Below, piece by piece: positions 36,564 through 40,028 of a stretch of DNA of 64,000 nucleotides. Location: NCBI GenBank assembly GCA_018654255.1, contig JABILX010000001.1, positions 209,695 through 273,694 of the forward strand, in the 5' to 3' direction. Numbering within the stretch: position 1 is the first letter of the stretch; each line of letters opens with the position of its first letter. The notes under the pieces are model-generated. The model was given only the letters and a program-made list of their open reading frames with translations, did not search any database and was not told the origin of the DNA. The DNA is from Candidatus Peregrinibacteria bacterium (GTDB taxonomy: Bacteria; Patescibacteriota; Gracilibacteria; UBA1369; LOWO2-01-FULL-3). The translations under genes and the position numbers were made by a program.

Positions 36564-37499
36564 GTGGTAAAATATTCGCAAATAAACTCACATCCTATGC
36601 AAATTGCAATATTAGCAACGATTTCAGTTCTTCCAGCATTATTCCTACTCTGGTTTTTTGAAAAACAAGATCACGGCGAAAAAGAACCAATCCGACTCAA
36701 AAACAAAGTTTTTTTCTGGGGAGTTTTCTCAACAATAATAGCAGGAGGGATCGAAATAAACGTGGATTCTTGGATTCCAGAGAGTTTCAACTTCTGGGTA
36801 TATATTTTCATAATGTCATTTATTACGACAGCCTTGGTAGAAGAGGGGATCAAACTCTGGATCGTAAAAAAAGTCGCTTGGCCACACAAAAAATTCAATG
36901 AAGTCATGGATGGAATCACATACGCGGTGATAGCAGGGCTTGGATTTGCGATGCTGGAGAATTTACTTTTTGTGCTTTCAACAAATATAGAGGTAGGGAT
37001 CGCAAGAGGATTACTAGCAGTTCCTGCACACGCGTTATTCTCAGGACTTCTCGGCTATTACATCGGAGAAGCAAAATTCCAAAACACACCATGGGACGCA
37101 CGCAACAAATTGTGGAAAGGATTTTTGATAGCAGTTTTCTACCACGGACTATATGACTTCTTACTCTTTTCACAGACTTCGCTCTGGATACTCATACTCC
37201 CTTTGCTAGTCATAATGGCATTCCACCTAACTCATTTGATATCCAAAGCACGCCACCTCGACAAACACCACAAAAAAAATCCAAGACTTTTCCGTCTGCA
37301 CATTGGGATCAGAATAATCGCAGCGACAGCAATGACGGCAGCAGGAATACTTTCATTATCAGGGACAATCCTCGCGGTATACAAAGAAATGCCTGGCTAT
37401 ACATATTTAGAAATCCTATTCAGCGCGATTTTTGCGCTAATAATGCTCACAGTCTCATACCTTCTAATTAGGAAAGGAGCCTTGCGAAAAAAGAAGTAG
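36564..37499 (+). CDS. PrsW-family intramembrane protease
   Basis: ALVEEGIKLW and FYHGLYDF motifs in a polytopic protein. The start may instead be ATG 36597. Confidence 0.7.
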   Translation: MVKYSQINSHPMQIAILATISVLPALFLLWFFEKQDHGEKEPIRLKNKVFFWGVFSTIIAGGIEINVDSWIPESFNFWVYIFIMSFITTALVEEGIKLWIVKKVAWPHKKFNEVMDGITYAVIAGLGFAMLENLLFVLSTNIEVGIARGLLAVPAHALFSGLLGYYIGEAKFQNTPWDARNKLWKGFLIAVFYHGLYDFLLFSQTSLWILILPLLVIMAFHLTHLISKARHLDKHHKKNPRLFRLHIGIRIIAATAMTAAGILSLSGTILAVYKEMPGYTYLEILFSAIFALIMLTVSYLLIRKGALRKKK

Positions 37500-37529: not shown

Positions 37530-38396
37530 CTAAAACCCGCCCTCTTCAAAAACCTTTCTGAAATACCATTTTATCAAATCCCAATTTCCATCAGCAGGAA
37601 CTAATGTGTAAGCTTGAAGTTTATTTTCACAATCAGGTCGTGGGGAATCGGCCAGAGGAACTCCAACACCAGAATCACCCACAGAAACTTCCTCGACACT
37701 AACACTAGCGGTCCACTCATCAATCATCTTCGTGCATTCCTCCTTGGCTATATATTCTGGTACAGACAAAATATTTCCAGTCGACAAAACATATCCAGAA
37801 TTGATATCAAAATTTTGATATTTGAAGTAGTAGGCCATCGCCTCAGAAATAGAAATATCAGTTTCAGTCTTATTCAACACAGTCCGAATGATGTCATACA
37901 AAGTTCCAGCATCTCCAAACCCAAACTCACGAGCCTTTTTTTGAATAGCCCCCAGGATCATGTGCTGCCTCTCTGCGCGAGCAAAATCAGAACTAGTGTG
38001 ACGAGAACGCGCAAGACGCAAAGACTCCTTACCCATCAGATGATAATCCCCAGGGGCATAGTTCAGCGTGCCCCAAACACCATTGTCCAAAGTCTTGTAA
38101 GTTGGATCAATCACAGCACTGTCCAGATGAACATCAATTCCACCAATAATATCAACCACATCTATGAAAGCGTACATATCGATCAGAATATATTTATCCA
38201 ATTCATATCCAGTAATTTCTCCCAAAACTCTTTTGAATTCCTCCATCCCAAAATTCATCACATAATGATTGATTTTCCGGCCGTTATAATACAGGTCACG
38301 TGGAATAGAAATCATATCGACTGTGCGATCATTCTCATCAATATGAGCAAAAATCATAGTATCAATTAGGCTCCCATGTTTCCCTGCAATTAACAC
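37530..38396 (-). CDS. LytR-CpsA-Psr (LCP) domain ORF with no start of its own; probably expressed as a frameshift fusion with 38459..39748
   Basis: DTMIFAHID....MISIPRDLYY LCP core. The first strand FNVLIAG begins upstream of the annotated GTG. The frame is open to 38531 with no ATG, GTG or TTG. Confidence 0.6.
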   Translation of the reverse strand: MLIAGKHGSLIDTMIFAHIDENDRTVDMISIPRDLYYNGRKINHYVMNFGMEEFKRVLGEITGYELDKYILIDMYAFIDVVDIIGGIDVHLDSAVIDPTYKTLDNGVWGTLNYAPGDYHLMGKESLRLARSRHTSSDFARAERQHMILGAIQKKAREFGFGDAGTLYDIIRTVLNKTETDISISEAMAYYFKYQNFDINSGYVLSTGNILSVPEYIAKEECTKMIDEWTASVSVEEVSVGDSGVGVPLADSPRPDCENKLQAYTLVPADGNWDLIKWYFRKVFEEGGF

Positions 38397-38458
38397 ATTG
38401 AAGGTTCCCTCCTGATGAGAAGGCGTGTCTGAGAAGGCAGGAACGCTAGAAGGTAAAT

Positions 38459-39748
38459 TTAAAGTTTTTTTTTGAGCCCTTCTTCGAAGAAAAGCAAATT
38501 CATCGTATCGGCCCCCTCTGGCCCAACAACCTCAACAAGCCCAGAGCTTTTTTCTATTACAATCGACCCAAGCAAAACCCCACTCGCATCTCCATAAAAA
38601 ATATCATAATAAAATCTGTATTCATCTTCACGAGCCAAATTGTTAACATACAAAGAATTCTCTTCCAAAAGCAATTTGAATCCATTGTCTTCAAAAGTCT
38701 CTGCTAGCACCAATTGCGCTTCGATTATATTTTTCTGCACAGCAGGTAAAACATCTAATTTTTCGATAAAAGGCGGTAGAGAAGTCGCAAGGTCAGTGAC
38801 TTGCAAAACAATATTTTCATCATCCCTAGAATCATGCAGCGTGATAGAAAAATCTTCCAAACTCAAGATAACCTGAGCCACAACCTCGGTCGCTATATTC
38901 TGAATATCAAATGTCAAAGCCGAATCAGTTTGAGTAGGCTCGGCAACAAAAGTTAATTGTTCAGCAGCAAGCAGATCAACCATCTCCTGCTTAACAAAAG
39001 ACTCAACGATATAAATATTTGAAGCTTCAATCTTTTTGATATTAGTCAAAATAGTACTCAGATTATCACGAAGATAAATCAAGACATCGCCAGCAAACTC
39101 ATCAGTATCAGTTGATACAACAGACGTCGAGTCAGAAGCAGCCTCAAGAACCATATCTCCAGTCTCCTTATTGAGAGTAAAACTCAAAACCTTGCCAACT
39201 TCGCTGTCCATAATTTCCAAATAATAATTTTCTGCTTTATCAGAAATTTGGCCAAGAATAAGGCCCTTATCTTCCAAGAAATAAGAAAGTTCAGAGTTAG
39301 AAGCCAAGCCTCCCAAGAAAGCATAATTCTTATCAAAAGCTGCTTTTTTGCGTTCAATGTCTCCTAGATACCCAACATATTTGAAGAGGGAAATTTGCAA
39401 TTCATTTTCATTCTCATCACTAACAGAAGGACTCTCGTTAGAATCAGATGAAGACGAATACTGGCGAGTTGGAAGAAGTAAATAACCTCTCACTTCATTC
39501 AAATCCTCACCAATCATCTGAGAAACCTCAGTCAGCTTCCCAACTTCATCAACCAAACTAGAACCTCTCAAAGACAAACTAGTTAACCCACCGGTCATTC
39601 GAGCAACCTGGAAATATTGGATGAGAAAAAACGCAACAATAACACCAATAATTATGTTTTTCCTGGTTAAATGGGGCTGCCAGTTCTCTGGTACCTTATT
39701 TTTTGCCCCCGTGGTCAATTTCGAAATTTGCTTTTTAATTTTCTTCAC
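38459..39748 (-). CDS. membrane-anchored extracytoplasmic protein (likely N-terminal part of the LCP protein)
   Basis: 429 aa with N-terminal TM IIIGVIVAFFLIQYF. It ends ...GLKKKL* across an A9 tract (plus-strand T9 at 38465-38473). Confidence 0.65.
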   Translation of the reverse strand: MKKIKKQISKLTTGAKNKVPENWQPHLTRKNIIIGVIVAFFLIQYFQVARMTGGLTSLSLRGSSLVDEVGKLTEVSQMIGEDLNEVRGYLLLPTRQYSSSSDSNESPSVSDENENELQISLFKYVGYLGDIERKKAAFDKNYAFLGGLASNSELSYFLEDKGLILGQISDKAENYYLEIMDSEVGKVLSFTLNKETGDMVLEAASDSTSVVSTDTDEFAGDVLIYLRDNLSTILTNIKKIEASNIYIVESFVKQEMVDLLAAEQLTFVAEPTQTDSALTFDIQNIATEVVAQVILSLEDFSITLHDSRDDENIVLQVTDLATSLPPFIEKLDVLPAVQKNIIEAQLVLAETFEDNGFKLLLEENSLYVNNLAREDEYRFYYDIFYGDASGVLLGSIVIEKSSGLVEVVGPEGADTMNLLFFEEGLKKKL

Positions 39749-39999: not shown

Positions 40000-40028
40000 T
40001 TGACTTCAGGGGGGGGGTATGTTATAAT
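40000..40028 (+). promoter_or_regulatory. promoter TTGACT-N17-TATAAT with a G9 tract in the spacer
   Basis: ttgacttcagggggggggtatgttataat, with the G-run at 40009-40017. Confidence 0.5.

Follow-up and report, generated by a model that had tools for sequence, protein, structure and literature searches.

We analyzed a 64,000-nucleotide stretch of DNA (referred to here as the window) from a Candidatus Peregrinibacteria bacterium (assembly GCA_018654255.1, contig JABILX010000001.1, positions 209,695 to 273,694 of the forward strand). On the minus strand of the window, two open reading frames (ORFs) meet at a run of nine adenines (A9): ORF1, which encodes a predicted membrane-anchored ectodomain, and a second frame that encodes a LytR-CpsA-Psr (LCP) catalytic domain (Table 1). 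ORF1 (39748..38459) ends in GGG CTC AAA AAA AAA CTT TAA, and the LCP frame is -1 relative to ORF1 and open from 38531. The LCP-frame part is readable only after a -1 shift or the insertion of one A at the tract. One added A, or one base slipped back, joins the two parts into a protein of 739 amino acids (428 + 311) that reads ...EEGLKKK-TLNLPSSVP..., with the junction ...GLKKK/TLNLPSSVPAFSDTPSHQEGTFNVLIAGK, where TLNLPSSVPAFSDTPSHQEGTFNVLIAGK is a tryptic peptide of the linker in the LCP frame. An earlier note on this DNA, made from the sequence alone, had described an ORF ending in A9 followed by CTT TAA, an LCP ORF in the -1 frame open from 38531, and a fusion of about 738 amino acids; all of its statements about the sequence were verified, with a computed length of 739. 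The sole start-like codon ahead of the LCP domain in the window, GTG 38396, sits inside the first strand F-N-V-L-I-A-G, confirming that this strand begins before the GTG. We found that the A9 tract is the only A or T run of at least nine in the 64-kb window, which contains 12 runs of eight. The A9 tract is more than a chance occurrence. An alternative genetic code (TGA as Gly, as in Gracilibacteria) was considered for the locus and dismissed, since translation table 11 leaves both ORFs open and the 0 frame terminates at TAA or TAG.

Table 1. Features of the LCP locus in the window (aa, amino acids; TM, transmembrane).
Feature	Position	Strand	Description
ORF1	38462..39748, stop 38459-38461	minus	429 aa; predicted N-terminal TM helix and ectodomain of three modules; C-terminal KKKL
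Predicted TM anchor, residues about 29-51	39596..39664	minus	hydrophobic helix H29-51 in the AlphaFold2 model; sequence IIIGVIVAFFLIQYFQVARM
GGGCTC	38474..38479	minus	directly 5' of the A9 tract; synonymous sites invariant in the split-A9 clade
A9 slippery tract, three AAA Lys codons	38465..38473	minus (T9 on plus strand)	putative recoding site
0-frame stop TAA	38459..38461	minus	one codon past the A9 tract
LCP-frame coding part	37533..38465, stop 37530-37532	minus	311 aa: linker TLNLPSSVP..., LytR-CpsA-Psr catalytic domain, C-terminal extension
Stop closing the LCP frame upstream	38532..38534	minus	bounds the region of possible frame change
GTG, start of the LCP ORF according to the gene-caller	38396..38398	minus	within first beta-strand FNVLIAG; rejected as functional start

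Related loci were collected from GTDB genomes, metagenomes and assemblies; of the 55 obtained, 53 reach the junction, and the named source records are Candidatus Peribacteria, Peregrinibacteria or 'Gracilibacteria' metagenome-assembled genomes. Both the tract and the two-frame arrangement recur among these orthologues: A9, A10 or (once) A11 is present at the homologous junction in 53 of 53 loci, and a clade of loci with the two parts in different frames (split loci) was found, next to loci that carry both parts in one frame (fused or in-frame loci). A protein search with ORF1 returned 28 clusters (42-93% identity, 430-497 amino acids), all without an LCP domain and all ending in GLKKK(L/I). 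More distant relatives (31-43% identity) are single proteins of approximately 700 amino acids that read KKKTL(E/D/Q)LP...FNILIAGKHG across the junction, a peptide that equals the -1 frame of the window exactly. A second protein search returned more than 100 fused clusters from Peregrinibacteria, annotated 'LCP family protein', with KKK at the junction in 95 of 97 parseable cases.

We asked whether the tract is maintained as a string of nucleotides or as Lys-Lys-Lys. Across 45 non-redundant loci, every Lys codon of the tract is AAA and none is AAG, while Lys codons elsewhere in these genes are 73% AAA and 27% AAG. Two invariant Lys columns taken as controls contain AAG in 10 of 41 (AAA in 31) and 15 of 43 loci (AAA in 28), and no other KKK triplet in these genes is all-AAA (0 of 8). 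Outside the junction, approximately 200 kb of related loci contain five runs of nine and none of ten. These data indicate that the tract is conserved as nucleotides and not merely as Lys-Lys-Lys.

The LCP frame is intact over 282-311 codons in the complete split loci. The ratio of nonsynonymous to synonymous substitution rates (dN/dS) of the LCP half is 0.04-0.07 across six split-clade pairs, below that of the N-terminal domain (0.05-0.11). Since synonymous sites in the split clade are near saturation even in the nearest pairs (dS 0.3-2), this low dN/dS argues that the split is not gene decay. Split and fused genes alike encode the peptide T-L-(E/D/N)-(L/I)-P-x-x-(I/V)-P immediately past the tract when read in the LCP frame, and the linker varies synonymously in that frame (TTA or CTG for Leu; CCT, CCC or CCA for Pro). 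The LCP half also appears to be entered at the tract. An LCP-frame stop lies 7-13 nucleotides upstream of the tract in eight split loci, which confines frame entry to about 25 nucleotides in which the tract is the sole slippery sequence. Together, the comparisons indicate that the LCP half is translated, with a frame change at the tract.

An alternative is that the locus holds two separate genes, with the LCP domain translated from an internal start, which in the window would be GTG 38396. Gene callers do annotate separate LCP ORFs, and start-like codons are found at the first strand both in the window and in one split-A10 locus. The GTG, however, is not conserved, and 12 of 18 non-redundant split loci contain no in-frame ATG, GTG or TTG ahead of the first strand, the start-like codons of the remaining split loci being scattered Val or Leu codons; orthologues consisting of two genes with their own starts, which would have spoken for this alternative, were not what we found. 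Moreover, the 20 residues of linker that precede such starts show protein-level conservation in the LCP frame, the product would miss part of strand 1, the TM segment and a signal peptide, and no promoter-like site was found ahead of the LCP domain in the window. We consider two separate genes very improbable. In the split-A10 locus just mentioned (L051:1792-1800), an ATG replaces the first-strand Phe codon (MNILVAGKHG) and gene callers start the LCP ORF there; its upstream linker is still conserved in the LCP frame.

Since homopolymers are error-prone, the split could also be an artefact (a miscalled A10), or the gene could be a recently inactivated pseudogene. We judged tract length in sequencing runs from Logan contigs, which drop minor variants. 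The window organism was recovered from four marine metagenome runs, where the region is without an indel at a coverage of only 5-9x, a depth that leaves room for miscalling. An orthologue whose N-terminal domain is 56% identical (L011) has a gap-free A9 in eight runs from eight studies with word depths up to 90, and a relative resembling the window organism that co-occurs in these runs also has A9. Assemblies of 12 runs covering two species therefore show A9 and not the uniform A10 expected of an assembly error in one ordinary gene. A10 is called in relatives from the same assemblies: a single metagenome assembly, Ga0172379, contains an A9-split contig (L016) as well as an A10-fused one (L030), which argues that assemblers are not collapsing A10 to A9. 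A homopolymer sequencing error, one of the options raised by the earlier note, is thus effectively excluded as the cause of the split. Decay is likewise opposed by a split that is common to a clade with near-saturated synonymous sites and by two halves that are both intact and under purifying selection, although one orthologue does have a premature stop in its LCP part. Taken together, artefact or decay is extremely improbable. The orthologue with the premature stop (L039) is in frame at the tract; the stop lies approximately 71 codons past it, the close relative L041 is intact, and either a pseudogene or an assembly error would account for it.

The in-frame relatives contain a hidden stop. 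Thr is followed by TTA in 8 of the 23 fused loci and by CTA in 12; one locus each has CTG with A as the next base and ATA with G as the next base, and L033 has AAT GAG at this position; loss of one A would bring a stop within two codons in 23 of 23. Post-tract Leu codons are TTA or CTA in 20 of 21 cases, although TTA and CTA together make up 26% of the Leu codons in these genes and CTA alone 7%. The other non-zero frame of the fused loci meets a stop within 3-11 codons. Overall, a stop lies 1-3 codons past the tract in the corresponding frame at every locus. Thermus dnaX similarly has stops close by in both non-zero frames (PMC5009743). These data suggest that the in-frame genes, too, make the short product and that selection favours it there. 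The hidden stop lies in the frame that is reached by loss of one nucleotide, so it is accessible to deletion by the polymerase and not to -1 ribosomal slippage.

We next considered how frame state is distributed on the phylogeny, using a tree built on the joined proteins, with partial or later-fetched split lineages left outside it. The split-A9 loci form one deep clade (15 rows, SH-aLRT 100), and two loci (L007 and L040) are independent split-A10 cases within the fused clade. Frame state changes three times on the tree, compared with a mean of 13.1 after shuffling, and 0 of 200 shuffles were as low. Beyond the A9 clade, the split state is found in at least six additional, independent lineages: L007, L040, L043/L049 (A9, partial contigs), L051 (A10, Thr to Asn), L053 (A9, with GAGAGT upstream) and L054/L055 (A10, 0 frame ending KKKT*). 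In all of them the LCP domain is in the -1 frame and one additional nucleotide is needed. Within the A9 clade itself, L012 has become A10 through a C-to-A substitution. In several split lineages, substitutions beside the tract extend the out-of-frame A9 to A10, which would raise slippage efficiency.

A single locus, L052, requires the loss of one nucleotide and not the gain of one. The L052 contig is 99.7% identical to that of L025, with A11 out of frame in the former (L052:2761-2771) and A10 in frame in the latter (L025:2451-2585). The two come from different samples of one aquifer project with a coverage of 4-5x, and the difference is either a length polymorphism in the DNA or a miscall. An IS3-type transposase (rve, HTH_21) is encoded at L052:1-1172, just upstream of the A11 gene variant.

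A homopolymer in a surface or envelope gene may also be a phase-variable switch, which the earlier note had listed among its options. In this case replication slippage would toggle the DNA tract between an OFF state, A9, that gives the anchor only, and an ON state, A10, that gives the full enzyme, and LCP expression would come from ON cells. Repeated changes of tract length in evolution (A9, A10, A11) and the one-A difference between the L025 and L052 samples would fit such a switch, as would the fact that minority variants are invisible in contig data. However, frame state is stable on the phylogeny, with three changes against 13.1, which is unlike a rapidly switching phase-variable locus. 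The whole deep A9 clade would have to be 'OFF', only A9 was seen in the 12 runs of two species at up to 90x, and a dN/dS of 0.04-0.07 is hard to sustain for a half that is permanently 'OFF'. Furthermore, a simple ON/OFF switch needs neither the tract nor the hidden stop in in-frame relatives. Phase variation is therefore disfavoured, and we regard it as improbable.

The LCP half matches the Pfam family LytR_cpsA_psr (PF03816) with 98 bits (cut-off 24.6) over profile positions 3-148 of 150, and matches the solved structures of TagV (6uf3) and YvhJ (3nxh) at 6e-14, as well as TagU, TagT, Cps2A and MsrR. The SIPRD, ARSR and R..RQ motifs are aligned and intact. By sequence, the LCP half thus belongs to the LytR-CpsA-Psr phosphotransferase family. 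LCP enzymes transfer undecaprenyl-phosphate-linked glycopolymers to peptidoglycan and work on the outer face of the membrane. The predicted TM helix (residues 29-51) is present in ORF1 only, and the LCP domain is without a membrane or export signal of its own. Joining of the two frames would be needed for this anchor to serve the LCP domain, and since the LCP domain also has no start codon, only the fusion could place it outside the membrane.

We modelled ORF1 with AlphaFold2 (AF2) and obtained a predicted local distance difference test score (pLDDT) of 76, with residues 115-420 mostly above 90; the AlphaFold model of a natural fused homologue, P0033, has a pLDDT of 82. Both models contain a TM helix, a poorly modelled stretch and three tandem modules, followed in fused P0033 by the LCP domain. 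Each module combines a long and a short helix with a four-stranded sheet, and the three modules make up residues 115-420. In both models, the KKK of the tract falls in a short segment with a pLDDT below 50 between folded parts. The models thus indicate that the A9 tract encodes a disordered interdomain linker. Since the modelled tract lies between two folded parts, the short isoform is predicted to be a complete membrane-anchored ectodomain and not a truncated fragment. The ectodomain (about 370 amino acids) had no match in a Pfam profile search of ORF1, and a Foldseek search against the PDB returned nothing significant, the best match being the C-terminal (PepSY-type) domain of YpeB (E-value 1.9e-3, TM-score 0.15). 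The three modules may represent an undescribed accessory domain of LCP enzymes in bacteria of the candidate phyla radiation (CPR).

Our data suggest that the locus is very probably one gene for a membrane-anchored LCP glycopolymer transferase, expressed through programmed recoding of either kind at a conserved poly-A tract. The earlier note had named programmed -1 frameshifting or transcriptional slippage as its first option, and this option gains support from the conservation of the tract, from a start-less LCP half under selection and from the conserved linker. In our proposed model, standard decoding of the A9 message would yield a 429-amino-acid short isoform consisting of the TM anchor and the three-module ectodomain and ending in KKKL. 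In a fraction of expression events, the frame would move -1 at the tract. The likeliest cause would be that RNA polymerase slips on the nine A:T pairs and adds one A, generating A10 transcripts, while tRNA-Lys slipping back on A_AAA_AAA in translation would be a contributory or alternative cause. The outcome would be a 739-amino-acid full-length enzyme, ...GLKKK-TLNLPSSVP...-LCP. In the in-frame A10 relatives, slippage at the kept tract would give the short form. The tract would then act as a family-wide setting of the ratio of short to full-length product, with the default form changed by a one-nucleotide change in the tract. That the tract is kept in the in-frame relatives too makes it look like such a family-wide ratio device.

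We reasoned that tract length and sequence context could indicate which machine slips. The A_AAA_AAA heptamer (X_XXY_YYZ type, as in -1 ribosomal frameshifting of the E. coli dnaX and IS3 kind) is in phase with the 0 frame in all split loci. The conserved run of at least nine exceeds the heptamer that a ribosome needs, which favours slippage by RNA polymerase. A homopolymer of about nine or more where two frames meet, conserved as nucleotides among orthologues and followed by a start-less ORF under purifying selection, is also typical of programmed transcriptional slippage sites such as those of Thermus dnaX, tssM1 and mxiE. Runs of nine A or T have been described to support slippage with 'high efficiency in vivo' (PMC5009743). 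In E. coli reporters, frameshifting amounted to 40% with nine A and 63% with 11 A (PMC3711429), and the A11 run of tssM1 gives 20-25% slippage, with both forms and their ratio being required (PMC4256274). RNAalifold found no conserved RNA structure from -45 to +80 in 14 split-clade sequences (0 pairs), which argues against a classical programmed -1 ribosomal frameshifting (PRF) cassette. In the split-A9 clade, GGG (14 of 14) and CTC (13 of 14, CTG once) lie directly 5' of the tract, although GGG accounts for 22% of Gly codons and CTC for 8% of Leu codons in these genes. Neither the in-frame relatives nor the other split lineages have GGGCTC. It could be a context element for the polymerase. 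Provided that recoding occurs, transcriptional slippage is the probable mechanism, ribosomal -1 frameshifting alone seems unlikely, and we hold joint action of both machines to be just as doubtful.

Several observations weigh against programmed recoding, or against its transcriptional form. Since contigs lose minor variants, a minority A10 subpopulation may be present in the DNA, and the L025/L052 pair means that tract length can vary in DNA or be miscalled. The gene was absent from three metatranscriptome runs of the window organism's study, and no RNA run with the L011 orthologue was found. Regarding the transcriptional form, the invariant GGGCT(C/G) could be a weak Shine-Dalgarno (SD)-like ribosomal stimulator. 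The invariant GGG ends three nucleotides 5' of the tract in the A9 clade, while the SD-like spacing that favours -1 shifts is 10-14 nucleotides, longer than the spacing at this tract.

A broader version of the recoding model is that every Peregrinibacteria orthologue, in frame (A10) or out of frame (A9/A10), uses polymerase slippage at the poly-A linker as an ancient isoform-ratio device, with the anchor and ectodomain as one product and the full enzyme as the other. Both forms would be needed for envelope glycopolymer attachment, the ratio would be retuned by one-nucleotide changes or lengthening substitutions, and GGGCTC would be a new kind of slippage modulator. We put this forward tentatively, as a proposition whose chances fall a little short of even.

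The closest parallel to the LCP gene is tssM. In tssM1 of Citrobacter rodentium and tssM3 of Yersinia pseudotuberculosis, as in the LCP gene, a membrane-anchored envelope protein is separated from its C-terminal functional domain by a poly-A run that a premature stop follows within a few bases (PMC4256274). In tssM, slippage produces short and full-length forms; one species is out of frame, where slippage gives the long form, and another is in frame, where slippage gives the short form (PMC4256274). Both frame arrangements also occur in the LCP family. The run is A11 and confined to the tssM genes of two species, whereas the LCP family has A9-A11 throughout, in 53 loci and about 100 protein clusters. 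Slippage was demonstrated experimentally for tssM (PMC4256274); the LCP case, proposed from sequence comparison, concerns a different protein family and phylum. Since tssM1 requires both forms and their ratio, we infer by analogy that the short LCP isoform might be a structural or regulatory partner of the full enzyme.

The tau and gamma products of dnaX offer a second comparison. Larsen et al. reportedly described dnaX slippage in 2000, as cited in PMC3711429. As proposed for the LCP gene, dnaX makes two products per gene, the short one ending just past the slip site, and, like the LCP family, it has stops nearby in both non-zero frames and homologues with alternative frame arrangements. Thermus thermophilus dnaX uses transcriptional slippage on a nine-nucleotide homopolymer and E. 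coli dnaX uses -1 PRF on A_AAA_AAG (PMC5009743). E. coli dnaX contains an upstream SD-like element and a downstream hairpin, whereas no conserved structure was found for the LCP gene. The proteins also differ in that dnaX encodes a cytoplasmic replication factor and the LCP gene an envelope enzyme.

Poly-A frameshifts in insect endosymbionts, reportedly described by Wernegreen et al. in 2010, provide a third comparison. Ancient poly-A frameshifts in Buchnera and Blochmannia are reported to be rescued by polymerase infidelity (PMC5009743, PMC3017870, PMC3711429). Like the LCP family, these are out-of-frame genes at A-runs, kept intact over the long term by selection in reduced, A+T-rich genomes. 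The endosymbiont frameshifts affect many genes and are mostly regarded as damage that is tolerated, whereas the LCP family has a single domain junction, the tract in every member, in frame or not, and a conserved hidden stop. The presence of the tract in all members, together with the conserved hidden stop, favours use over rescue.

Canonical LCP enzymes (B. subtilis TagT/U/V, S. pneumoniae Cps2A and S. aureus MsrR) contain a homologous catalytic domain and share the layout of TM anchor, accessory domain and LCP domain. Unlike in these enzymes, the accessory ectodomain of the window gene (about 370 amino acids in three tandem modules) has no Pfam or PDB match. We know of no report of recoding in canonical LCP genes. 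Our literature searches returned no paper linking LCP or LytR genes, or Peregrinibacteria, with frameshifting or slippage, and neither LytR nor LCP is mentioned in the GeneTack survey or the Atkins review. To our knowledge, conserved programmed recoding is seldom seen in bacterial chromosomes other than in mobile elements; the examples known are prfB, dnaX, tssM, the mxi/spa genes and a few others. Programmed slippage at a homopolymer is itself a known phenomenon, for which the gene family and phylum would be new.

If the tract is a family-wide device, no conserved recoding signal on a CPR chromosome would have been described before it, and it would join a very small number of such signals in housekeeping envelope genes of any bacterium. 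The comparative support is unusually clean: it draws on over 50 loci with several independent changes of frame, and it includes the hidden stop as well as strong selection on a domain that lacks a start codon. The host is a not-yet-cultured lineage of the CPR. Annotation is affected, since the gene is now called as two ORFs or as a hypothetical protein and a truncated LCP. Recoding at the tract would suggest a fixed ratio of a non-catalytic anchor protein to a catalytic enzyme in the envelope machinery of reduced-genome bacteria. The natural series of A9, A10 and A11 tracts, with or without GGGCTC, also lends itself to the question of how context tunes slippage.

Two further observations concern the surroundings of the gene. 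A PrsW-family intramembrane protease gene (window 36564-37499, plus strand; Pfam 6e-37) lies immediately downstream of, and convergent with, the LCP gene; a PrsW gene is also found near the fused orthologue in L050, and the synteny may be conserved. The only long G/C homopolymer of the window, a G9 run (40009-40017), falls within the spacer of a near-consensus promoter (TTGACT-17-TATAAT) that precedes the next gene.

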